Of a stretch of DNA of 64,000 nt, positions 21,339 through 42,208 are shown piece after piece. Numbering within the stretch: position 1 is the stretch's first letter; each line of letters starts with the position of its first letter. Under the pieces are notes generated by a model, which saw only the letters and a list, made by a program, of their open reading frames with translations, was not told the DNA's origin and searched no databases. The translations under genes were made by a program, and so were the position numbers. This stretch comes from Dehalococcoidia bacterium (GTDB lineage: Bacteria; Chloroflexota; Dehalococcoidia; Bin125): assembly GCA_963555985.3 (NCBI GenBank), contig OY820591.1, positions 1,568,001 to 1,632,000 of the forward strand. The letters are read 5' to 3'.

Positions 21339-24300
21339 TCAGCCCGCTCCCAGCAGCACCGCCGCATAGGAGACGCCTTCGGTGTCCACCCCAATCAGCA
21401 GGACTTGGCCAGCCTCCAGACCGGACAAGATCTCGACGCTGGTGTCGTCGGATTCGCCCACCTCGACTTCGACTCGTTCCCAACCAGCCAGATTCTCGCT
21501 GGGCACAGCGACGAAGAACCCGCCCTCGATTTGACGAACAGCGGAGATCGCCACCAGCACCGCCTCGTCGCGGATCTCGGTGATGATCGTGACGCTGGCG
21601 GTCATCCCGGGCGCAGGTAGCGGCTGTTCCACGACGCCTGATTCTTCCGCTTCCGCGAGTGCTTGCTCATAGGCTAGGAACACCCCTCGGATCTGGGTCT
21701 TGAACTGCTCCGGAATCTCGAACTCGTCCGGCAGTACGACTCCTTCCGGCAGAGGATCGTCGAACACGAGGGCGCGAATCACGCTGAGCGTCTCGACGCC
21801 GGGAGGGATCGTGGCCTGAGCTTCGAACGCGGCGAATAGTTGTCTTGCCTGAGGCGTCTCAAACGGATTGGGAACGCCGCCGCTGGCTGCCCCTTCAGCG
21901 CCGATCGTGATGGCGTTCTCACCACCGATCGCAGCCAACTGATCGGCGGCCTCCGGGAGCTCCTCAGGTGTGAGGATCGAGGCGTCCACGTCGTACGTCA
22001 CCACTCCTTGCTCAATCTGCGGGACGCGCCCCGCCTCGGCCACTCGAATCGCGTATACGAAACCCTCAAGGGCGTCGAAGCTGGCGACACCGACTAGATC
22101 CGGTTCGAGCTCGAACCATTCCGCTTCCGTCACACTAAGTTCGATCACAAGCTGACCGCGCGTGCTGAGCACGAGCGCCGGGGTACTGGCTGAAACTCGG
22201 TCACCGAGCTCGATGTTGATTTCTTCAACAACGCCGTCGAACTGAGCGCGGATGACCAGATCATCAAGCGCACCCTCAGCTTCTTCGACAGTGAGCTCGG
22301 CCAGGCGGACATTCTGAGTCTGGCGGTCGATGGCGCTCGCGGTAGAACCGGCGAGAAGCTCGTCACGGCGCGTGACAGCTTCCTCCAGACTGGCGTACGC
22401 GCTGGCCAAGGAGGACTCGGCCTGTTTGATTTCCTCCTCGGTTGCAGGTTCGAGAAGCTCGCTCAAGCGAGCGCGCGTAGCGTCGACATTGGCCCGCGAC
22501 GCGGCCACGGTCTGCTCCGCTTGATAGCGATCTTCGATGTCCGGGTCGGCTTGCAGATCGTCAAGCCGCGCAGCCGCAGCGTCATAGTTCGCCTGCGCAG
22601 CGACAATCGCCTGTTCCGCCTGGAAGAGATCGTCCGCGTCCACATCACCGCGCAGGTCGTCAAGCCGCGCCTGGGCAGCCTCGAGGTTCGCGCTGGCCGC
22701 GGTGACGGCCTGCTCGGCCTGGAAGAGGTCGCTGATGTTGGCCGGCGTCAGCAAGTCGTCCAAGCGAGCCTGTGCGGACTCAAGGTTCGCTTCGGCCGCT
22801 TGTATAGTTTGCTCGGCTTGGTAGATGTCGGCCGCGTCCACATCGCTCCGCAGTTCGTCGAGCCGCGCTTGGGCAGCTTCGAGACTCGCGCTGGCCGCGG
22901 TGACGGCTTGTCTCGCCTGGAAGAAGTCGTGAGTAGTGGGGGGCGTCAACAGGTCGTTCAATCGCGCCCGCGCCGCTGCCAGATTCGCCTCTGCCGCCTC
23001 GACGGCCAGCCCAGCTTGGTAGACGTCATCGGCGTCCACATCGCTTTGCAGCTCATCCAGTCGCGCCTGGGCAGCTTCGAGATTCGCCTTCGAGGCAACG
23101 ACGGCTTGCTCCGCCTGGAAGTGGTCGTGAACAGTAGGGGGCGTCAACAGGTCGTTCCATCGCGCTCGTGCGGCTGCGACGTTTGCCTCTGCTGCCTCAA
23201 CGGCCTGTTGCGCCTGGTAGATGTCATTGTCATCGGCTGGTCGGAGCAGGTCAGCGAGCCGCGCTTGCGCGGCCTGGAGTGATTCGGTGGCGGATTCTTC
23301 GGCGTTGCGGGCACGTTCAAGAGCCGTATGTCGGTCAAGGAGCGCCTTCGCCAGTCGTTCAAGATTGGAGCCTCGCTCTTCACTCTCCTCTTCCAGATAC
23401 ACGAGTTCCTCGGCGGTCAGTGGGAGATCAGCGCGGCAAATCGAGGGCAAGACGGAAATTTCATCGCAGAAATCCTCATGCGCTCTGTCAATTTGATCGA
23501 GTGCAGTTTCCACATCGTTCTCAGCCGCGCTTAGATTTGTGCGAGCCGTGGGAAGTGCGGCGCGGGCCGAAGCCAGATCCGCCGCACTGGGCTCATCAAT
23601 CAGGTCTGCGAGAGATTGTTCCGTGCTTGAGAGTTGGCCGAGCGCACTCGCGACCGCTTGCTCGGCGCTGGCGAGCTCGGCGGCCGACGGGTCGCTGCTG
23701 AGATCGTCGAGCGCCTCTTCGGTCGTTGACAGTTGATTGCGGGCATTGGCGACCGCTTGCTCGGCGCTGGCGAGCTCGGCGGCAGTCGGTCCTGCACTCA
23801 GATCGGCGAGAGCTTGTCGCGCTGTTGAGAATTGGTTGCGCGCGTTAGCGACGGCCTGTTCCGCGCTGGCGATCTCAGCAGCCGACGGGCCGCTGCTCAG
23901 ATCCTCGAGTGCCTCCTCAGCCGCGGACAGTTGATTGCGGGCGTTCGCGACCGCTTGTTCGGCGCTGGCGAGCTCGGCGTCAGTGGGTCCGGCCCTCAGA
24001 TCAGTGAGTGCTTGTTGCGCTGTCGAGAGCTGATTGCGCGCACTCGCGATGGTTTGTTCGGCGCTGGCAATCTCGGCGGTAGTTGGACCGGTGGTCAAGT
24101 CGTCGAGCGCCTCTTCAGCCGCCGACAGTTGATTGCGGGCGTTGGCGACCGCTTGCTCAGCGCTGGCGAGGTCGGCGGCTGTTGCTCCGTCGGTGAGGTC
24201 ACTGCGGGCCTGTTCAGCGCTGGAAAGTTGGCTGCGGGCGTTGGCGACGGCTTGTTCGGCGCTGGCGAGCTCAGCGGCCGTAGCTCCCTCGGCAAGGTCG

Positions 24301-24902
24301 TTCAACGCCTCTGCGGCACCGGAGAGCTGGCTGCGGGCGTTGGCGACGGCCTGTTCGGCCTGGTGGACCTCGCTCTGGTCAGGCGGTTCCTGCAAGCGTT
24401 GCAGGGTGAGTTCGGCGCTCGCGACTTGAGCCTCGGCGGAGAGCACCGCTCGCTCCGCAGCGGCGATATCAGCGACTGCTGGATCGTCCTGCAGCTCTTC
24501 GAGTGCGATTTGGGCCAAACGCAACTGCAGTTGGGCGGTCTCGAGCCGGCGAAGCGCATCTGTGTCATCGAGCCGTGCCAGGGCGTCACCGACCTGCACT
24601 GTCTGTCCTACTTCGGCCTCAATCGAGCTGACCGTGCCGCCAACTGCAAAGGTGAGGTTTGCCGTATGCGCCGCCGCTGCGGAACCCGACAACTCGATCG
24701 TCGTGGTGAGCCGCCCCAGCGTGGCAACGGTGCGCTGAGGTTCGACGGCAACAACTTCCTCTTCGGGGCGCGTGAGAAGCCAAGCCACGACAGCGATGAC
24801 GGCGGCAATGACGAGCAGAGCGAGGACGATCCAGGGTCGCCGTGAGCGGCGCCGGCTGACCAGCGCATCGATCGCATCAAGATCCGTTGATTGGATGGTC
24901 AA
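21339..24902 (-). CDS. Membrane fusion protein (HlyD/MacA family) with a greatly expanded alpha-helical hairpin
   Basis: N-terminal TM; lipoyl half-motifs (GTVSSIEAEVGQTVQVGDALARLD and IRAQFDGVVEEINIELGDRV); C-terminal VEILSGLEAG; 33-aa internal repeats. Confidence 0.88.
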   Translation of the reverse strand: MTIQSTDLDAIDALVSRRRSRRPWIVLALLVIAAVIAVVAWLLTRPEEEVVAVEPQRTVATLGRLTTTIELSGSAAAAHTANLTFAVGGTVSSIEAEVGQTVQVGDALARLDDTDALRRLETAQLQLRLAQIALEELQDDPAVADIAAAERAVLSAEAQVASAELTLQRLQEPPDQSEVHQAEQAVANARSQLSGAAEALNDLAEGATAAELASAEQAVANARSQLSSAEQARSDLTDGATAADLASAEQAVANARNQLSAAEEALDDLTTGPTTAEIASAEQTIASARNQLSTAQQALTDLRAGPTDAELASAEQAVANARNQLSAAEEALEDLSSGPSAAEIASAEQAVANARNQFSTARQALADLSAGPTAAELASAEQAVANARNQLSTTEEALDDLSSDPSAAELASAEQAVASALGQLSSTEQSLADLIDEPSAADLASARAALPTARTNLSAAENDVETALDQIDRAHEDFCDEISVLPSICRADLPLTAEELVYLEEESEERGSNLERLAKALLDRHTALERARNAEESATESLQAAQARLADLLRPADDNDIYQAQQAVEAAEANVAAARARWNDLLTPPTVHDHFQAEQAVVASKANLEAAQARLDELQSDVDADDVYQAGLAVEAAEANLAAARARLNDLLTPPTTHDFFQARQAVTAASASLEAAQARLDELRSDVDAADIYQAEQTIQAAEANLESAQARLDDLLTPANISDLFQAEQAVTAASANLEAAQARLDDLRGDVDADDLFQAEQAIVAAQANYDAAAARLDDLQADPDIEDRYQAEQTVAASRANVDATRARLSELLEPATEEEIKQAESSLASAYASLEEAVTRRDELLAGSTASAIDRQTQNVRLAELTVEEAEGALDDLVIRAQFDGVVEEINIELGDRVSASTPALVLSTRGQLVIELSVTEAEWFELEPDLVGVASFDALEGFVYAIRVAEAGRVPQIEQGVVTYDVDASILTPEELPEAADQLAAIGGENAITIGAEGAASGGVPNPFETPQARQLFAAFEAQATIPPGVETLSVIRALVFDDPLPEGVVLPDEFEIPEQFKTQIRGVFLAYEQALAEAEESGVVEQPLPAPGMTASVTIITEIRDEAVLVAISAVRQIEGGFFVAVPSENLAGWERVEVEVGESDDTSVEILSGLEAGQVLLIGVDTEGVSYAAVLLGAG
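22330..24480 (-). repeat. Intragenic 99-bp (33-aa) tandem repeats in two arrays
   Basis: Units of type AELASAEQAVANARNQLSxAEEALxDL, followed by units of type DxxQAEQAVxAAxANLEAAQARLDxL. Confidence 0.85.
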
Positions 24903-35162: not shown

Positions 35163-36403
35163 CTCAGGACGCCGGAAGCGGTGAGTTCGGCGACCTCTTC
35201 GGGCGAGTAGCCCAGCACCTCAGTTGCGACCTCGTATGTGTGCTGACCGAACAGCGGCGCGGGCGACGCGAGGTAGCCCGGCGTGTTGTGCAGCTTGACG
35301 ATCGGGCCGTCGTAGAGCGAAATGTCCGTTTCCGGGTGGTCCAGATACTCGTAGAAGCCTCGTTCGGACAGGTGCTCGTCGTGTTCGCACATGTCCTCAG
35401 CGTCGTGGACGAGCGACGCCGCGACGCCCACCGATTGCAATTGGATCGCCAATGACGCTGCATCGAACGAGGCTGTCCAAGCGGACACTGATTCGTTGAG
35501 TTCGGGTTCATTACGTCGGCGACCGCGCAACGTCGAGAATCGGTCGTCTGAGGCGAAGGCAGAGCCCTCCGCAACTGTGCAGAGTGATTCCCACTGGGCG
35601 TCGCTGCCGACGGCGATGGCGATCCAGCGTTCGCGCCCGGACGGATCGTCGGTGCAGCGATAGATGCCGTGCGGACACATCCAACTCGATTGATTGCCCT
35701 TGCGAATCTGGTTGACGCCGTTCGCCGTGTAGTCCAGCAGCGCCGGACCCATCGTCGCCGAGACCGACTCAATCTGCGCCAGCTCAATCCGCTGCCCTTG
35801 ACCGGTCCGCCGCCGGTGTCGCAGCGCAGCCAGGATGGCAACGATGGTGTGCCCCGGATTGACCGCGTAATCGGGATAGTTGGTCCCGACCCCGACCGGC
35901 CGGCGCTCCGGATCGCCGGACAGATGCGAGATGGCGGTCGTCGGCGTCAGCACTGCGCCGAAACCGAGGAAATCTCGGTGCGGACCAGTGAGACCCTGCA
36001 TCGGCTGGTAGGCGGCGATGATGTCCGGCTTGACTTCGCGCAGTTCGTCATATGTCAGTCCCCAGCGCTCGAAGATGCGCGGGGTGAGGTTGGAGAGGAA
36101 GATGTCCGACCGCTCGATCAGTCGGAGCGCCACCTCACGCGAACCCTCGGCCGACATGTTGAGCAGGAACGAGCGCTTGTCGGCGTTGAAGTTGTTGAAG
36201 TACGCGCAGACGTTGTAGCCCGACTTGCCCGGCTTCTGCGGCTGGCCCAGGCGCAGACCGTCGACGCGGGCCTCTGACTCGATCCGGATCACATCGGCGC
36301 CGAAGTCTGCGAGCGTGCGCCCGGCGATCGGCCCGGCCCCGAACCACGAGAAGTCAGCCACGCGAATGCCGTCCAGCGGTCGTGCGCCATTTGCGGATGT
36401 CAT
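35159..36403 (-). CDS. CoA-transferase family III (CaiB/BaiF)
   Basis: Motifs PLDGIRVADFS, LADFGADVIRIE, NADKRS and APLFGQHT. Confidence 0.92.
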   Translation of the reverse strand: MTSANGARPLDGIRVADFSWFGAGPIAGRTLADFGADVIRIESEARVDGLRLGQPQKPGKSGYNVCAYFNNFNADKRSFLLNMSAEGSREVALRLIERSDIFLSNLTPRIFERWGLTYDELREVKPDIIAAYQPMQGLTGPHRDFLGFGAVLTPTTAISHLSGDPERRPVGVGTNYPDYAVNPGHTIVAILAALRHRRRTGQGQRIELAQIESVSATMGPALLDYTANGVNQIRKGNQSSWMCPHGIYRCTDDPSGRERWIAIAVGSDAQWESLCTVAEGSAFASDDRFSTLRGRRRNEPELNESVSAWTASFDAASLAIQLQSVGVAASLVHDAEDMCEHDEHLSERGFYEYLDHPETDISLYDGPIVKLHNTPGYLASPAPLFGQHTYEVATEVLGYSPEEVAELTASGVLS

Positions 36404-37683
36404 ATCGCGCCCTCCCCGGCGAATGCGATCAGGTCCTCAGCAGGAATGCCGACCTCGCCGGCCCAGACTTCCTGGTTGTGCTCGCCGATCTGCGGGGCCG
36501 GCCAGCGAATGCCGGTCGGCGTCTCCGACAACCGATAGGGCGGACCGGGGAAGCGCAACGGCGCGTCATCGGCTCCGAGTGTGGTCGGCTGGTTGAACTC
36601 GAGCCACCACTGGCGAGCGTCGAGATGGCGGCTATCGCCCAGATCAGCCGGCGTTGCCACCTGTCCGATCAGCAGTCGGCGGGCCTGACCCTGCTCGTAG
36701 AGTTCCATCGAGGTCTTGGCGGCATAGAAGTTGGTCAGCACTTCCTGCGCCCGATTCATGATCGGCGCGAGTTGCTCCAGTTCCTCGGGGACCATCAGCA
36801 TCCGCATATTGAAGTTGCCGAAGGTGTCCACGTAGATCGGATCGGTCAGGTCTTCCGCCTGGCCTTCCTCGTCCATCCAAGCGATCAACGCGGACCAGGG
36901 CGCGCCGAATCCGGGAACGCCGACCATCGAGAAGATGTAGCCGTCTAGGGTCCGGTACGTTCCGATGCCGGGCATCCGGTGCTGCTCGCCGATCCGCTCG
37001 CGCGACGTGCCCTGGAAGTCCCATTGCAGATGAGCGGTCTCCTGGCAGATTGAAAGCGCCTCCTGCATCGAGGTTTCGACGCGCTGGCCGACGCCCGTGG
37101 CCTCGGCCTGTAACAGCGCCAGCAGCGCGCCCTGCGCCGCCGAGATGCCGGCGACGATGTAGGCCTGATTACCCGCGATCCGCATCGGCGAGCCGTCGGG
37201 GTAGCCGGCGAGCGTGGCGATCCCGGCCGCCGCCTGCGCCACGATGTCGGTCACCTCCCAGCCTGCCTTGAGACCGTCCAGACCGAACCCCGTGATCGAG
37301 ACCCAAATCAACGAAGGCCGCGCCTCCATGTATGTCTCCGGATCAATCCCAAGCTCGGCCAACTCCGACCGCTCAGCCCCCGTCCACGACTCGATCACGA
37401 TGTCCGCCGTCTCAACCAGCCTGCCGAACAGCCAGCGACCGTCGTACTGCCCTAGGTCAACAGTGACCGAGCGCTTGTTGGCGTTGAAGTACCAGAAGCG
37501 CAGCGAAGTCTCGCGCCCCGGCTGACCTTGCCAGAAGGGCGCACGCGCACGCGCCGGGTCGCCGCCGACCGGCTCCACCTTGATCACGTCCGCCCCGAGG
37601 TCGGCCAGCAGCTTGCCGCAATACCAGCCCATCTCGGAGGTGAGGTCGAGAATGCGGACGCCGTCGAGCGCTGCCTGGTTCAT
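36400..37683 (-). CDS. CoA-transferase family III (CaiB/BaiF), partner subunit
   Basis: Motifs ALDGVRILDL, LADLGADVIKVEP, NANKRS and APQIGEHN. Confidence 0.92.
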   Translation of the reverse strand: MNQAALDGVRILDLTSEMGWYCGKLLADLGADVIKVEPVGGDPARARAPFWQGQPGRETSLRFWYFNANKRSVTVDLGQYDGRWLFGRLVETADIVIESWTGAERSELAELGIDPETYMEARPSLIWVSITGFGLDGLKAGWEVTDIVAQAAAGIATLAGYPDGSPMRIAGNQAYIVAGISAAQGALLALLQAEATGVGQRVETSMQEALSICQETAHLQWDFQGTSRERIGEQHRMPGIGTYRTLDGYIFSMVGVPGFGAPWSALIAWMDEEGQAEDLTDPIYVDTFGNFNMRMLMVPEELEQLAPIMNRAQEVLTNFYAAKTSMELYEQGQARRLLIGQVATPADLGDSRHLDARQWWLEFNQPTTLGADDAPLRFPGPPYRLSETPTGIRWPAPQIGEHNQEVWAGEVGIPAEDLIAFAGEGAI

Positions 37684-37719
37684 GCGCAACAGCCTATCGT
37701 GTGTCTGAGGAGGCCGATC

Positions 37720-38076
37720 ATGGTGCTCGAAGACGTAGACAGCCAGTCGGAGGCCGCCCGCGCGGTCACGCCGATGTCGGAGATTCGGCGTCGAAAGTCG
37801 ATCACGCTTGACGAGTTTGATCGCCGCTATCCGGACCATGAGTGGACTGAAGGCCGCAAGGGGATCCTGTTGCAGGACCACCATGGCGGTCTCTGGGTGC
37901 CATTGGTCGACCCACTACACGGGCTGTACTACGAGTTCGATGATCCTGAGTTGACGCCGGAGATCGAGGAGGCGTTGGCCGAGGAGGCACGGAGGGCTCG
38001 CGAGGAGATTCTCGCTGGCGGTGGCATTGATTTTCGCGAGTTGGACGAAGACGAGTCCTTCTGGGCTGACGAGTAG
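37720..38076 (+). CDS. Putative antitoxin (acidic)
   Basis: GAGGAGG RBS; very acidic C-terminus (EALAEEARRAREEILAGGGIDFREL); directly upstream of the RelE-like toxin. Confidence 0.6.
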   Translation: MVLEDVDSQSEAARAVTPMSEIRRRKSITLDEFDRRYPDHEWTEGRKGILLQDHHGGLWVPLVDPLHGLYYEFDDPELTPEIEEALAEEARRAREEILAGGGIDFRELDEDESFWADE

Positions 38077-38082
38077 CGGTAA

Positions 38083-38346
38083 GTGCAACTCAAGGTCACC
38101 CTCAAGGAAGAAGCGAGGGCACAACTGCGTGTGTTGACTCCGGTACCGAAACGCGAAGTGCGAAGCACGCTGCGGGAGATGGAAGACGACCCGTACGGGC
38201 TGGACACGATTCCGCTGCAGCCGCCTTTAGATGGACTGTACCGAGTCCGCGTGGGCGACTACCGCATCATCTTCGAGCCTGGGCCTGGGCATCGGCAGGT
38301 CACGGTCACGCGGATCGGTCACCGCGATTGGGTGTATGAGGACTGA
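38083..38346 (+). CDS. Type II toxin, RelE/ParE family
   Basis: GLYRVRVGDYRIIF...VTRIGHRDWVY. Confidence 0.88.
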   Translation: MQLKVTLKEEARAQLRVLTPVPKREVRSTLREMEDDPYGLDTIPLQPPLDGLYRVRVGDYRIIFEPGPGHRQVTVTRIGHRDWVYED

Positions 38347-38475
38347 GGTTGTTCAGCGAAGAATTTTTTCTGGGCCTTTGGATGGGGTGCTTCGGCGACG
38401 ATCTCCTGTGTTTTACGGGGTTTTGTGCGATTTGGGATGGTCAGGATTGGTTAGGTTTGGTTGGCCCTGTTCAGT
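38345..38475 (-). repeat. Dispersed intergenic element homologous to 938..1065
   Basis: Shared sequence blocks; contains a + strand GGN-NN periodic run at 38434-38463. Confidence 0.6.
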
Positions 38476-38511
38476 CGAGTTCAGTGTCGCTGAATCGTGG
38501 TCAAGTGTTGA

Positions 38512-38535
38512 GCGCGGCGGCCGAAACCGCCGCGC
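38512..38535 (-). terminator. GC-rich hairpin closing the pentamer array (3' end of the putative RNA, or a terminator)
   Basis: Minus strand GCGCGGCGG-TTTCGG-CCGCCGCGC: a 9-bp stem with a UUCG-type loop and no long U-tract. Confidence 0.65.
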
Positions 38536-38608
38536 CCGTCCTTGCCCAACCCCGCCCTACCCTGCCGTGCCTGGCCACGCCATACCCAGCCGAGCCAAGC
38601 CTTGCCCT
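38534..38608 (-). ncRNA. Putative guide-like RNA: 15 phased NN-GGY pentamers
   Basis: AG GGC AA GGC TT GGC TC GGC TG GGT AT GGC GT GGC CA GGC AC GGC AG GGT AG GGC GG GGT TG GGC AA GGA CG GGC. It starts 7 nt after the stop codon of the RAMP-like gene. The repeat is directly visible; RNA status is inferred. Confidence 0.7.
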
Positions 38609-38615
38609 GAGATTG

Positions 38616-39215
38616 TCAGCTTATCTCATCGACCGCCAACACCTCAAACCTGCCGTAATGGCCACTCTTCTCGGGCCGCCAGTCGCCGAGTCCGATCCTG
38701 CGCGAGCCGATGTCCAGCCACGTTTCCAGTTGTTCCTGGTCGACGAGTTCATCATCGACCTCAATACGAAAGCGCGCTTCCCACTCTTCGAACATGGCGC
38801 GCGTGCGCAGGACGCGGTTGCGCTGCACGACAACTCCAGTGGTGAACTGCGCCTTCTTGCCGAGCTGCTCGACCGTCGTGCCGTAACGCTCGCGGTCGTA
38901 TTCGAACTTGGCGTCGCCGAGCACGATCAGGCCCTCGCGTACCTGCGGACCCTGCGTGAGTTTGCGAGCGGAGGTTTCGATCATAGATCGGAACGCCGTT
39001 CTCGGGATTGTCGGCGCTCCGCCCGCGTCGAGCCAAAGAGAGATTTGGCACTCGAGCTCGCGGAGTCGTTCTTCGTCGCTGGCGGTCCTGTTGGATCCCT
39101 TCTTGCGGGTGATTTCCGCCTTCTCGAGATTAGCAGGGCTGCGGGTGTCGAGTCCGGCCGCGCCGTTGTGCATGATGATCGGGCTGATGCCTCGGATGTG
39201 GATGTCGTACTCCAT
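38616..39215 (-). CDS. Stand-alone RAMP/Cas7-like RNA-binding protein (199 aa)
   Basis: AGGAAGGA RBS; N-terminal strand IHIRGISPIIMH; PTIPRTAFRSMI (compare RAMP P.IP.S.lKG.lR); C-terminal Gly-rich loop GLGDWRPEKSGHYGRFEV. Confidence 0.75.
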   Translation of the reverse strand: MEYDIHIRGISPIIMHNGAAGLDTRSPANLEKAEITRKKGSNRTASDEERLRELECQISLWLDAGGAPTIPRTAFRSMIETSARKLTQGPQVREGLIVLGDAKFEYDRERYGTTVEQLGKKAQFTTGVVVQRNRVLRTRAMFEEWEARFRIEVDDELVDQEQLETWLDIGSRRIGLGDWRPEKSGHYGRFEVLAVDEIS

Positions 39216-39499
39216 GCCTGTCCGATTCCTTCCTCTACGGCTGCCAGGAGCGTGTAGATGTCGCCGCCGTTTCGGGTGAAGCGGCGGAGCGTGGTCGCAA
39301 TCTTGTGGCAAGGCCGGCAGAGCGCGGTGATGTGGTCGGCGCTGACGTTGCACTCGCAGGCGTCGGGTAGGTAGACGGCGAGCCAGTGGTGGCCTTCCTC
39401 AGCGGGGCGCTGTCCGCAGAACTGACAGACGCCGTTGGAGCGCTCGCGAGCGTCCTCTTTCGCCTTGCGGGTGTTGGGTCCGTCGGTGTTGTTGCACAT
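38981..39499 (-). CDS. HNH-like zinc-binding endonuclease; reading frame runs on into the downstream gene
   Basis: CQFC...GHH...HITALCRPCH pattern in the first ~95 aa; the tail overlaps 38616..39215 in another frame. Confidence 0.65.
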   Translation of the reverse strand: MCNNTDGPNTRKAKEDARERSNGVCQFCGQRPAEEGHHWLAVYLPDACECNVSADHITALCRPCHKIATTLRRFTRNGGDIYTLLAAVEEGIGQAWSTTSTSEASARSSCTTARPDSTPAALLISRRRKSPARRDPTGPPATKNDSASSSAKSLFGSTRAERRQSRERRSDL

Positions 39500-39572
39500 C
39501 GGTGGTTCTTTCGACCTTATGAGCGATGTTAGCTGGGATTGGTCGTGGAGACAAGGGTGGACTCTTTGAATT

Positions 39573-39702
39573 CCCTCTCCCCCTGCGAGGGGAGACACAG
39601 AGGGGGGCGATCATCGCGTCGAGCAGATAGGTGACTCAGTGCGCAGCGCGGCGTTCTCACCCCCTCTGTCACTTCGTGACATCTCCCCCTTGAGGGGGAG
39701 AT
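39573..39702. repeat. ~130-bp palindromic repeat, copy A
   Basis: CTCCCCC-n-GGGGAG hairpins at both ends, a CAGAGGGGG/CCCCCTCTG stem and a GTCAC-TTC-GTGAC hairpin. Confidence 0.88.
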
Positions 39703-39717
39703 CGGGACGGCTCGGTT

Positions 39718-39847
39718 CCCTCTCCCCCCGCAGGGGGGAGATACAGAGGGGGGCGATCGTGGCGTCGAGCAGACAGGTGATTCGGTGAGTTGCGCGACGT
39801 CTCACCCCCTCTGTCACTTTGTGACATCTCCCCCTCGAGGGGGAGAT
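39718..39847. repeat. ~130-bp palindromic repeat, copy B
   Basis: Direct repeat of copy A with substitutions. Confidence 0.88.
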
Positions 39848-40221
39848 TGGCTTTGCTCATGTTGTAGCTGGTTGAGGGTGTTGAGGATGGTGTCCAGCAC
39901 CGCGTCGGTCTCTGTGAGGGCTGTGTGGTTGTCGAAGCGCAGGACTTTGAAGCCTTGGGAGCGCAGATAGGCATCTCGACGCTGGTCGTAGGATTTGCGC
40001 TTGGCGTGCTGATCGCCGTCGAGTTCGACGACGAGGCGCGGGCTCAGGCAAGCGAAGTCGGCGATGTATGGGCCGATTGGGCGCTGACGGCGAAATCGGT
40101 AGCCTGCGAGTTGGCTTTGGCGGAGGCGCGACCAGAGCCGCTGCTCAGCGTCGGTGGCGTCCGTTCGCAACCTTCGGGCGAAGTGAGTGGTCTTGGGATG
40201 CTGTCGGAGTCTTTTGCTCAA
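39814..40221 (-). CDS. DUF559 / Vsr-like (PD-(D/E)xK) endonuclease domain protein
   Basis: Motifs ARRLRTDATDAEQRLWSRLR, FRRQRPIGPYIADFAC, LVVELDGDQH and RDAYLRSQGFKVLRFDN; TTG start after AAGGA. Confidence 0.9.
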   Translation of the reverse strand: MSKRLRQHPKTTHFARRLRTDATDAEQRLWSRLRQSQLAGYRFRRQRPIGPYIADFACLSPRLVVELDGDQHAKRKSYDQRRDAYLRSQGFKVLRFDNHTALTETDAVLDTILNTLNQLQHEQSQSPPRGGDVTK

Positions 40222-40239
40222 CTGTGTCGTCCTTGTTTG

Positions 40240-40367
40240 CTCTCCCCCCGCAGGGGGGAGATACAGAGGGGGGCGATCGTCGCGCTGAGCAGATAGGTGA
40301 CTCAGTGCGCGGCGCGGGGTTTCACCCCCTCTGTCACTTCGTGACATCTCCCCCTCAAGGGGGGGAT
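40240..40367. repeat. ~130-bp palindromic repeat, copy C
   Basis: Direct repeat of A and B on the other side of the DUF559 gene. Confidence 0.88.
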
Positions 40368-41518
40368 CAGGCCCCCACCGCAACCTTCACGTTCGCCGGC
40401 AACCTCGACGTGAACACCTCCACTGCCTCCCTGACCATCTCCTCCAACACTTCCGCCGCCGGACGCAGCTCGTGCAGCAATCCTGAGATCTGGCCCGCCG
40501 CGTTCATCAACAGGTCTTCCCGCTCGCCTTGCTTGGCAGCCTCTGCGATATCCGCAATGAGCAAACCTTGGAGACCCATCGGCAATGCTTGCGTGCCGGA
40601 GCCTTCCCATGCTTCGATGAGTTCGTTGGTGATGTTGCGCATGGTCTTGCCGGAGTACAGCCGCGTCACCCGCGTGTCTTCGTCGTTGGCGGCGAGGATG
40701 CGGCGCTTGCGGAACTCGTCGAGATTGGCCTCTTGGGTGGGGATGAAGACGGTGCCGCACCAGACGCCCACACAGCCCATCGCCAACGCAGCCGCTAATC
40801 CCCGACCGTCGCCGATGCCTCCGGCGGCGATCACCGGCTTGGGGCTGACCGCATCGAGCACCTGCGGGAGCAGGGCCATCGTGCCGATCCGGCCGGTGTG
40901 ACCGCCGGCCTCGTGACCCTGCGCGACCACGATGTCGGCGTTGCCGTCGGAGACGCGGCGGGCGTTCTTGACGTTGCCCACGAGTGAGATCACCTTGCCG
41001 CCCGCTTCGTGCACTTGATCGACGAACGGGGCAGGATTGCCCAAACCGGTCGCGAGTACGGGCACTCTCATGCCGGTGATCGTGTCCACCTGATCCTGGG
41101 GAGTGAAGCGGGGCACGCGCACATCGGCGCGCGGCGCCTGGACATCGGGCAGTTCGAGGTTGACGCGAATCTCGCCGATCAAGTCCTTGTGCTCTTCGGG
41201 GAGTAAGTCGCGCGGGTCTTTGGGGCGCTGGCGTCCACTCGGGCGGCTGGCGACGTTGGAGGGCACGAGAATGTCGACACCGAAGGGTCGATCGGTGAGG
41301 TCCTGGATGCGCTTGATCTGCGCTTCGAGACGGTCGGGCGGGAATCCGGCAGCGCCGAGCACGCCGAGTCCGCCCGCGTTCGAGATCGCCGCGACCAGCT
41401 CGGGCCCGGCGACGCCGCCCTGTCCGCCGCCCACGGTCGGCCCCATCCCGGCCAGACAGATCGGGTACTCGATGTCAAGCAGGTCGCAGAGTTCGGTGTG
41501 GAGGACGGGGCGGGTCAT
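40367..41518 (-). CDS. Nitronate monooxygenase / FabK-like flavoenzyme
   Basis: Motifs AISNAGGLG, QGHEAGGH and VIAAGGIGDGRG. Confidence 0.9.
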   Translation of the reverse strand: MTRPVLHTELCDLLDIEYPICLAGMGPTVGGGQGGVAGPELVAAISNAGGLGVLGAAGFPPDRLEAQIKRIQDLTDRPFGVDILVPSNVASRPSGRQRPKDPRDLLPEEHKDLIGEIRVNLELPDVQAPRADVRVPRFTPQDQVDTITGMRVPVLATGLGNPAPFVDQVHEAGGKVISLVGNVKNARRVSDGNADIVVAQGHEAGGHTGRIGTMALLPQVLDAVSPKPVIAAGGIGDGRGLAAALAMGCVGVWCGTVFIPTQEANLDEFRKRRILAANDEDTRVTRLYSGKTMRNITNELIEAWEGSGTQALPMGLQGLLIADIAEAAKQGEREDLLMNAAGQISGLLHELRPAAEVLEEMVREAVEVFTSRLPANVKVAVGA

Positions 41519-41628
41519 GGTGGCTGCCAGTCGTTGCGTCGGGAGGGTGTTTGTCGCTGCATTGTTCCTGTGTCGGCGCACGCGGTCAATCGCGCAGGCT
41601 GCGGAGGAGGCGGGAGTAAGATGGGCGC

Positions 41629-41838
41629 ATGATGATCCGGGCTGCGCTGACTGCGGCGTTGGGGTTCGCGGCAACACTGGCGCTGCGAATCTGGGCGCGT
41701 CTGCGCAAGCCGCTCCTGATTGTGATTGGCGCAGTGATCCTGGTGATGTTGCTAATCGCGGTCTTGCAGTCGGGACTTGGCGTAGACAGTGAACAGACGA
41801 TCAAGGACAGTCAGCGCCCGGAGATCGTGGGCGATTGA
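41629..41838 (+). CDS. Small hypothetical membrane protein
   Basis: Hydrophobic segment; first ORF of a + strand run; start uncertain. Confidence 0.45.
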   Translation: MMIRAALTAALGFAATLALRIWARLRKPLLIVIGAVILVMLLIAVLQSGLGVDSEQTIKDSQRPEIVGD

Positions 41839-41860
41839 CGAGAGAGGAGCATGAGCCGCT

Positions 41861-42208
41861 ATGCCTCGACCGAGCGAGGGTCTGATTGACGAAGCGAGCG
41901 AGTGGATCGCCGAGCAGCTCTCGGAAGAGGGCCTGATGGTGACGTCCGGATTCGTCGATCTGGTGCTGCGGATGGAGTGGGACTCGATTGACGCCGGTGT
42001 GGACGGCGAGGATCGCACGGCGGTCGTCGCGGCGGTGATGGAGCGAATGCAGCAGGAGAACATCCTCGTTGGGCCGCCGCCGGACACGCTCTCGACCGAC
42101 GGGATCGATACCTCCCAGATCCGGCCGGTACCGCCGCAGTTCGTGGAGCAGGTGTTGTCCTGGGAGGACGAATTCCTCGGTTTCGCCGGCATCTCGCGGA
42201 GCGGGTAG
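41861..42208 (+). CDS. Hypothetical protein
   Basis: GAGGAG RBS; acidic 115 aa; apparently operonic. Confidence 0.65.
   Translation: MPRPSEGLIDEASEWIAEQLSEEGLMVTSGFVDLVLRMEWDSIDAGVDGEDRTAVVAAVMERMQQENILVGPPPDTLSTDGIDTSQIRPVPPQFVEQVLSWEDEFLGFAGISRSG

Follow-up and report, generated by a model that had tools for sequence, protein, structure and literature searches.

A pentamer array beside a vipr homolog in a Dehalococcoidia chromosome is probably the guide of a nuclease-linked VIPR locus with a conserved gene overlap

VIPR systems, reported in two preprints of April 2026 (10.64898/2026.04.26.720920; 10.64898/2026.04.26.720927), carry out a CRISPR-like, RNA-guided recognition of DNA. According to the searched text of the first, they consist of an ancestral RAMP protein of about 20 kDa (Vipr), vrRNAs and accessory vap genes, and each vrRNA is built of 9–16 YNNGG repeats, in which GGY is conserved and the NN dinucleotide is hypervariable, followed by a structured 3′ tail (10.64898/2026.04.26.720920). 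The dinucleotides pair with double-stranded DNA, with one target base skipped between successive pairs, a rule supported there by pangenome searches, competitive binding and repression of GFP for the phage SUSP1 and a Pseudomonas fulva prophage, while a contiguous reading was rejected (10.64898/2026.04.26.720920). Here we analyze a 64,000-nt stretch from a Dehalococcoidia bacterium (assembly GCA_963555985.3, contig OY820591.1, positions 1,568,001 to 1,632,000 of the forward strand; hereafter the window), whose minus strand carries an array of GG dinucleotides recurring every five nucleotides just past the end of a gene for a Vipr homolog. We consider it likely that this is a nuclease-linked VIPR locus of the chromosome, probably of type III and in the order vap, vipr, vrRNA, and that the array forms the guide portion of its vrRNA.

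Seven VIPR types are distinguished in the same text; types III–V come with predicted nucleases or helicases, and types III and V are located in defense islands (10.64898/2026.04.26.720920). Viral contigs matching at least 80% of the NN were reported there for 44 of 63 type III guides and 23 of 39 type V guides, and 19 of the 63 type III guides had no match in IMG/VR; some systems have a single vrRNA, and self-targets were not found (10.64898/2026.04.26.720920). The searched text of the companion preprint describes filaments resolved by cryo-electron microscopy, with one Vipr protomer per repeat, and assigns the contacts of SUSP1 Vipr as H17 and D177 to G1, R138 and W178 to G2, and R179 together with E71, M72, C173 and T175 around Y3, with K33 near the skipped base (10.64898/2026.04.26.720927). 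Two further preprints, each seen in part, deal with satellites and solo or decoy vrRNAs (10.64898/2026.10.15.759431) and with the recovery of 99 VIPR-like clusters from 5-nt entropy periodicity (10.64898/2026.10.21.760802). In the SUSP1 record (NC_028808.2) the 195-aa agp039 lies between two long intergenic regions. As this kind of system has been described since April 2026, the present locus introduces no new principle; its value lies in the instance and in its overlap architecture, as an additional case with a conserved gene overlap.

Read on the minus strand, the array consists of 15 units of the form NN-GGY, in order AG-GGC, AA-GGC, TT-GGC, TC-GGC, TG-GGT, AT-GGC, GT-GGC, CA-GGC, AC-GGC, AG-GGT, AG-GGC, GG-GGT, TG-GGC, AA-GGA and CG-GGC (11 GGC, 3 GGT and 1 GGA). 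An earlier, sequence-only reading of this DNA had reported GG in all 15 units and the same list of dinucleotides, and both were exact when the strand was read again. The array begins 7 nt past the TGA stop of the vipr gene, on the same strand, and a 16th in-phase GG (38531–38530) lies in the 5′ arm of a GC-rich hairpin that follows. This periodicity is far beyond chance: a 7-unit GG period-5 pattern had 10 overlapping matches in the window, all of them within the array, and not even a run of this length arose in 100 shuffles, while a 9-unit pattern had the array as its sole site in the 3.33-Mb genome. Genome-wide, GG period-5 runs numbered 71 of 5 units, 10 of 6, 3 of 7 and 1 of 16.

Long open reading frames on the plus strand (38349–39257 and 38231–38845) run through the tract and Tandem Repeats Finder returned rows of period 10 and period 25 for it, which could be taken to indicate coding sequence, a slippage microsatellite or a chance G-rich run. 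The Tandem Repeats Finder rows are weak (75–84% matches) because the units are not homogenized, and the array is not a homogenized microsatellite, as the sequence-only reading had maintained. The plus-strand frames are antisense to a conserved gene in a genome of 64% G+C and had no family matches, and the same architecture, with different NN, recurs beside homologous genes in distant phyla and in phages. The shuffles, this recurrent linkage and the strand bias given below refute such an origin for practical purposes, and we assign it next to no probability. The same earlier reading had called the dinucleotides markedly A/T-rich. The enrichment exists, as A and T account for 17 of the 30 bases of the NN string against a background of 36.4% (one-sided binomial P = 0.019), but it is modest in this array; it is clear across the family, where A+T reaches 62% at position 4 and 54% at position 5 of the unit against a background of 36% (1837 units).

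The protein encoded by the adjoining gene (P0001) had no match in Pfam, NCBIfam or PADLOC. It matched phrog_4652, a family with no assigned function, over its full length (E 1.5e-29), and its homologs included 140 tblastn matches in phage records, among them Felix-O1-like, Mycobacterium and Gordonia phages, as well as 1144 proteins in 90% clusters and 2665 clusters at 50% identity. BLASTP aligned P0001 with SUSP1 agp039 at 27% identity (E 2e-15), and a profile of 82 homologs matched agp039 in hhalign with a probability of 99.96% (E 8.9e-39, 187 columns). These alignments identify P0001 as a homolog of SUSP1 Vipr. An AlphaFold2 model built with the 82-sequence alignment reached a predicted local distance difference test score (pLDDT) of 97.1 and a predicted template modeling score (pTM) of 0.90, compared with a pLDDT of only 35 in single-sequence mode. 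When this model was searched against the PDB with Foldseek, the top matches were all of the Cas7-type RAMP backbone, namely Csm3, Cmr4, type VII and type IV Cas7 and Cas7-11; the best was Csm3 (8do6_E; E 3.2e-5, TM 0.52, probability 1.0), and 54 matches had E ≤ 0.001. The predicted fold of P0001 is that of a Csm3/Cas7-like RAMP protein.

Conservation of the residues that hold the RNA in SUSP1 was assessed in the same alignment. The SUSP1 contacts H17, R138, D177, W178 and R179 correspond to H16, R139, D178, W179 and R180 of P0001, and all five are conserved. Over the 82 sequences, the histidine is kept in 63, R139, the thumb arginine, in all 82, the aspartate in 78, the tryptophan in 71 and R180 in 81. 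Of the elements of the minimal RAMP fold of Vipr (an RRM core, a glycine-rich loop and a thumb), the G-loop GLGDWRP is nearly invariant among Vipr homologs.

The linkage between gene and array was surveyed at 78 genome loci, taken from contigs of one genome per species, and at 21 viral loci from IMG/VR, counting as an array any run of at least 6 units. Arrays on the strand of vipr were present at 72 of the 78 genome loci and 20 of the 21 viral loci. Counted by strand, 165 arrays lay on the same strand as vipr and 9 on the opposite one, the latter confined to 3 loci, and 573 kb of unrelated viral DNA used as a control contained 1 array. Most arrays start 10–60 nt past the vipr stop, and some lie upstream. 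Several of the genome loci without arrays (L036, L072, L078, L085, L087 and L089) are partial matches. In the phages Trine, LittleE and Mijalis, GG period-5 arrays flank the vipr homolog and occur nowhere else in the three whole genomes, and the same scan recovered the 12-unit GGT-NN array upstream of agp039 in SUSP1. Array length across the family peaks at 14–15 units.

A unit logo was built from 1837 units in 110 distinct arrays of at least 10 units. Positions 1 and 2 were G in fractions of.95 and.96, a conservation that is partly built into array detection, which does not apply to positions 3–5. Position 3 was C in.77 and T in.16 (C/T.93), position 4 was A in.42, G in.27, T in.20 and C in.11, and position 5 was near-uniform. 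Over the family as a whole, the GGY triplet is fixed and the two bases after it vary.

The weak bias at positions 4 and 5, the placement of the array between a gene end and a hairpin, and the capacity in principle of GG every 5 nt to form G-quartets would also suit an element acting as DNA, in which binding sites for a protein on the duplex, or two-tier G-quadruplexes, regulate or terminate vipr and the NN are spacers. Such an element has difficulty with the conserved strand of the arrays relative to the gene (165 against 9), with a 5-bp period that puts successive sites on opposite faces of the duplex, and with a conserved pyrimidine at position 3, which quadruplexes do not need. Its neighbor, moreover, is a predicted RNA-binding RAMP protein, homologous to one shown in the text of the preprints to bind such RNA. 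We consider a DNA-level role very improbable. Our reading of the array as a VIPR guide is grounded in the homology of P0001 to SUSP1 Vipr, its predicted RAMP fold, the retention of the GGY-contact residues and the conserved same-strand linkage of gene and array. If it is correct, a VIPR guide can be recognized in raw sequence from its 5-nt register alone. The sequence-only reading had proposed that the NN beside an invariant GG encode a target, either gapped or contiguous, plausibly in a phage or mobile element. The gapped form is supported by family membership, and under the published rule of one skipped base it would take the form AGnAAnTTn...; the contiguous form is rejected in the searched text of the preprints (10.64898/2026.04.26.720920; 10.64898/2026.04.26.720927), and the corresponding contiguous 30-mer had no exact match among viral contigs.

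In many relatives (L016–L018, L026, L050, L060 and L068–L069), 3–8 consecutive arrays of 13–19 units were observed downstream of vipr, 8–40 nt apart, and some of them were fused into runs of up to 40 units. Three 15-unit modules at one of these loci, L060, are nearly identical, with differences confined to NN. Two annotated coding sequences in the phages, Trine gp40 (L009, 3091–3894) and LittleE gp35 (L010, 2057–2446), overlie GGC-NN arrays and may be vrRNA regions mis-annotated as protein-coding.

At its 3′ end the array runs into the hairpin listed in Table 1, whose stem was present in both the minimum free energy fold and the centroid fold; the 156-nt stretch folded had a z of −3.0. The hairpin is not a canonical terminator, since it is not followed by a U-tract, and a scan for promoters and terminators detected neither a sigma-70-like promoter nor a minus-strand terminator-like site. 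At other loci of the family, GC hairpins likewise follow the terminal arrays. In a set of 141 distinct array ends, the pyrimidine no longer follows the last GG, and the two positions of the last NN are A or G in 91% and 82%. The last one or two NN are constrained to purines, giving approximately GGC-RR-GG-R-A, even in the phage LittleE, and the AA-GGA unit of the array studied here (window 38539–38545 region) fits this motif. By their sequence, the 3′-most units of arrays thus resemble a conserved end signal more than free guide. Units 14 and 15 (AA-GGA and CG-GGC) probably belong to this constrained end, and because the terminal dinucleotides are constrained in this way, the free guide probably comprises about 13 units (1–13), not 15.

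Table 1. Features of the putative VIPR locus and its surroundings (window coordinates)
Feature	Coordinates	Strand	Remarks
vap-like accessory gene, small HNH-like protein (CxxC..HH..CxxH)	38981..39499	−	overlaps vipr
vap/vipr out-of-frame overlap	38981..39215	−	235 nt, last ~78 vap codons, +1 frame
vipr gene	38616..39215	−	199-aa predicted RAMP protein P0001
Putative vrRNA repeat tract	38534..38608	−	15x NN-GGY; units 1–13 likely variable guide
Putative vrRNA 3′ tail hairpin	38510..38537	−	12 pairs including 2 G-U, UUCG loop
Short T-rich GG period-5 run, 6 units	38434..38460	+	50 nt beyond the vrRNA hairpin, opposite strand

The best described point of comparison is the type II VIPR of SUSP1, which combines agp039 with vap1 and four vrRNAs. 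Both have a RAMP protein of about 195–200 aa with the same residues for G1, G2 and stacking on Y3, same-strand GGY/NN arrays of about 12–15 units beside the gene, an apparently structured 3′ end and no self-target. They differ in that protein identity is only 27%, the triplet is mostly GGC here and GGT in SUSP1, the residues of the Y3 pocket are different, and a single vrRNA with a simple hairpin tail stands here in place of four. Furthermore, an HNH-like gene lies upstream and overlaps vipr, whereas in SUSP1 the DNA-binding vap1 is downstream, and the locus sits in a chromosome among metabolic genes, whereas SUSP1 is a lytic phage. In its cellular location, predicted nuclease partner, single vrRNA and lack of a hammerhead ribozyme (Rfam gave no match), it resembles the nuclease-linked types III and V; its type is assigned here from the preprint text, and the clade may already be part of the published set of 667.

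The likeness extends to the filaments of class 1 CRISPR-Cas systems, in which Csm3, Cmr4 or Cas7 assembles on crRNA: a RAMP fold, one protomer per RNA segment and a base-flipping thumb. In contrast to these, where the period is 6 nt with one base flipped, the units here recur every 5 nt, of which three bases would be sequestered and two presented, and the guide information would be interleaved within the repeat; no repeat-spacer array or cas gene was found among the open reading frames scanned. A type III CRISPR-Cas locus was accordingly rejected, as there were no CRISPR repeats nearby, PADLOC gave no match, and the neighboring genes encode CoA-transferases, a ParE toxin-antitoxin pair, a DUF559 protein, a nitronate monooxygenase and a LysR regulator. 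Neither was a prophage found in the surroundings, and a permissive Rfam scan over 36000–42000 returned no family.

TRAP, the trp RNA-binding attenuation protein, binds (G/U)AG repeats spaced 2–3 nt apart. It is likewise an oligomer whose RNA sites are short conserved triplets, repeated at intervals of about 5 nt and separated by spacers under little constraint. Its fold and role are unrelated, however, its spacers carry no information, and its sites are in the leaders of regulated operons and not beside its own gene. A TRAP-like attenuator was considered and dropped, as were a CsrA-type sponge, G-quadruplex DNA and primase-site arrays.

Within about 1.1 kb of the minus strand, the locus has the order HNH-like vap, vipr and one vrRNA. 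The likely start of the vap-like gene is the ATG at 39499, although its frame is open up to 39598. The encoded protein had no Pfam match at E 0.01; it matched HNH endonuclease families of PHROG (best E 1e-6) and, weakly, the HNH domain of ZRANB3 in the PDB (E 0.057). In an alignment of 18 sequences, residues C25, C28, G29, H37, H38, W39, C61, C64 and H65 were invariant. A homolog lies directly upstream of vipr at 49 of the 78 genome loci and at none of 3 phage loci. In the first preprint, the legend of fig. S21 gives an HNH domain for Vap proteins of types II, III and VII, and the text describes the vaps of types II and VII as DNA-binding (10.64898/2026.04.26.720920). Given that description, the HNH-linked locus is more readily placed in type III, to which we assign it as the probable type by analogy.

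The last part of the vap-like gene overlaps the start of vipr in another frame (Table 1). At each of 24 loci measured, the HNH frame continued without a stop for 187–256 nt past the vipr ATG, compared with a median of 29 nt to the first stop in the third frame. Over the first 186 nt of vipr, none of 40 HNH-linked loci had a stop in the +1 frame, while the same loci had 145 stops in the +1 frame over nt 261–571 and 73 in the +2 frame over the first 186 nt. Where the HNH gene is absent, just 1 of 13 loci lacked stops over these 186 nt of the +1 frame, as did 2 of 16 viral loci. The HNH-linked loci are kin (47–76% protein identity), and their stop counts are therefore not independent trials. The overlapped tail, 62–85 codons long, is basic and rich in S, T, R and P. 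Taken together, the pattern of stops argues for an overlap that is maintained. In the searched text of the first preprint there is no mention of a vap–vipr overlap, which its supplements might show (10.64898/2026.04.26.720920), and the overlap is possibly undescribed before.

A more tentative proposal, to which we give somewhat less than even weight, is that in this HNH clade a nuclease gene has been built into vipr, that its basic tail links the HNH domain with the Vipr filament or else couples their translation, and that the cassette has moved among at least six phylum- or class-level lineages. If the tail is a real coupling peptide, the cassette would be a self-contained RNA-guided DNA cutter of about 1.1 kb that uses a noncontiguous code.

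By analogy with the mechanism in the preprints, the tract would be transcribed with vipr or just after it. Vipr protomers would polymerize on it, one per unit, flipping out and locking G1, G2 and Y3 and presenting N4N5, and the presented dinucleotides would pair with a DNA strand in which every third base is skipped. About 13 × 2 = 26 informative bases would then select a site in foreign DNA. It is our conjecture that in this clade the HNH protein would next cut the bound DNA, so that the complex would do more than block transcription. The locus would represent, in compact form, the nuclease-linked branch of VIPR, which is the least studied; its close relatives occur in very different phyla. 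Should the gapped code direct DNA cutting by the HNH protein, the branch would supply the proposed link between phage-borne silencing systems and destructive immunity of the CRISPR type, and would also be a very small programmable nuclease.

A target for the guide was sought first in the own genome, with the array masked, gaps of 0–3 between dinucleotides and four orientations. The best agreement was 8 of 15 dinucleotides (7 in one setting), and shuffled controls (20 per setting) had means of 7.8–8.2 and a maximum of 11; the array has no self-target, as is the case for published VIPRs. Gaps of 2 and 3 were covered in this genome only. The scans of the viral and metagenome contig collections accepted exact matches only, which limits their sensitivity, and viromes of the relevant habitats may be missing from those collections; the seed scans exclude exact matches that contain the seeds, not imperfect ones.

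Several results of these scans, together with some features of the locus itself, weigh against a VIPR guide with a gapped target. The full pattern with one skipped base had no exact match in the viral contigs of IMG/VR. Seeds of 8 units had about the number of matches there that chance would give (13 for units 1–8, 17 for 4–11, 12 for 6–13 and 24 for 8–15), and these 66 matches extended to only 8 (45 matches), 9 (15) or 10 (6) of the 15 dinucleotides. The best of them agreed at 23 of 30 bases, below the 80% used in the preprint. The six best come from related contigs, where they all lie on a single conserved peptide motif, and the base they skip is in codon position 2, not in the wobble position; they are read as chance. 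The sequence-only reading had named 11 or more of 15 dinucleotides as strong support, a level reached nowhere in the searches, where the best hit of 10 of 15 is at chance level. A 10-unit seed had no match in JGI metagenome contigs. A search that tolerated up to 3 mismatches had no match in any of 401 genomes of the class, and a guide directed at a homing site is disfavored because relatives lacking the cassette had no match. For 127 guides of homologous loci searched against 4.3 Mb, 16 matches of at least 80% were obtained, compared with 12 for shuffled guides.

Among the features of the locus itself, unit 14 is GGA, with a purine where Y is expected. The residues E71, M72, C173 and T175 that surround Y3 in SUSP1 are T73, A74, I174 and L176 in P0001, and K33 is replaced by A33, with K32 adjacent. 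These residues are clade-specific and not family-defining, and the difference in the pocket may be linked to the preference for GGC here and for GGT in SUSP1. Close copies of the locus in Vicinamibacterales largely share their NN strings and are not hypervariable; these copies agree fully in the last five units, and their scattered changes are mostly at N4, N5 and Y3. Contigs from four DNA runs contained the exact locus along with variants that have the same vipr end and tail and in which 65–93 nt of the array body are unmatched, a weak hint of alternative guides. Finally, the published mechanism comes, as far as the searched text goes, from type II phage systems and not from HNH-linked ones.

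The missing target also agrees with a VIPR locus whose RNA is now only a scaffold, decoy or relic, in which Vipr binds GGY and the NN have no living target, either because the target was lost or the guide drifted, or because the RNA serves only to titrate or regulate Vipr and the HNH protein. The single vrRNA, the departure of unit 14 from GGY and the guides shared by close copies across genomes, as if carried along and not renewed, would fit as well, and solo or decoy vrRNAs have been described, according to the part seen of the corresponding preprint (10.64898/2026.10.15.759431). However, vipr, vap and all GGY-contact residues are intact, and the array is of the most common length and is followed by a hairpin. 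A blank is also common, given the type III guides without an IMG/VR match in the preprint text (10.64898/2026.04.26.720920), and the searches here required exact seeds in collections that may lack viruses of the relevant habitats. We judge a relic or decoy to be unlikely and continue to prefer a guide that specifies a gapped target.

The vipr gene is patchy among relatives, being present in 2 of 24 genomes of the own family and in none of 16 from other families of the class. Vipr copies with 50–76% identity occur in records titled as Dehalococcoidia, Alphaproteobacteria, Binatia, Vicinamibacterales, Acidimicrobiia (including ‘Candidatus Poriferisocius’), Thermodesulfobacteriota, Arenicellales and others, while the nearest relative in IMG/VR has 41% identity. 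This patchiness, combined with such similar copies in distant lineages, points to a recent horizontal spread of the cassette. Some genomes have several vipr copies (e.g., OZ244229.1 and OZ244228.1).

The short plus-strand GG run in Table 1 is covered by a Tandem Repeats Finder row at 38438–38462 and lies just after a terminator-like site (38404–38420) that follows parE. Since only 14 runs of at least 6 units exist on both strands of the genome, a second run within about 100 nt of the array is unlikely by chance (approximately 1e-3 by estimate), and it could represent a relic or a solo piece resembling a vrRNA. On the other side of the cassette, a 145-nt tandem duplication (39571–39847; 1.9 copies, 87% matches) adjoins the DUF559 or restriction endonuclease-like gene (39814–40383) directly upstream. 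Short peptide-like motifs recur there in several overlapping reading frames, which suggests a dispersed repeat of the REP-like (repetitive extragenic palindromic) kind. Farther away, imperfect tandem repeats of 99 and 198 nt (22553–24363; up to 7 copies, 65–78% matches) are unrelated to the array and probably represent a repetitive coding region.

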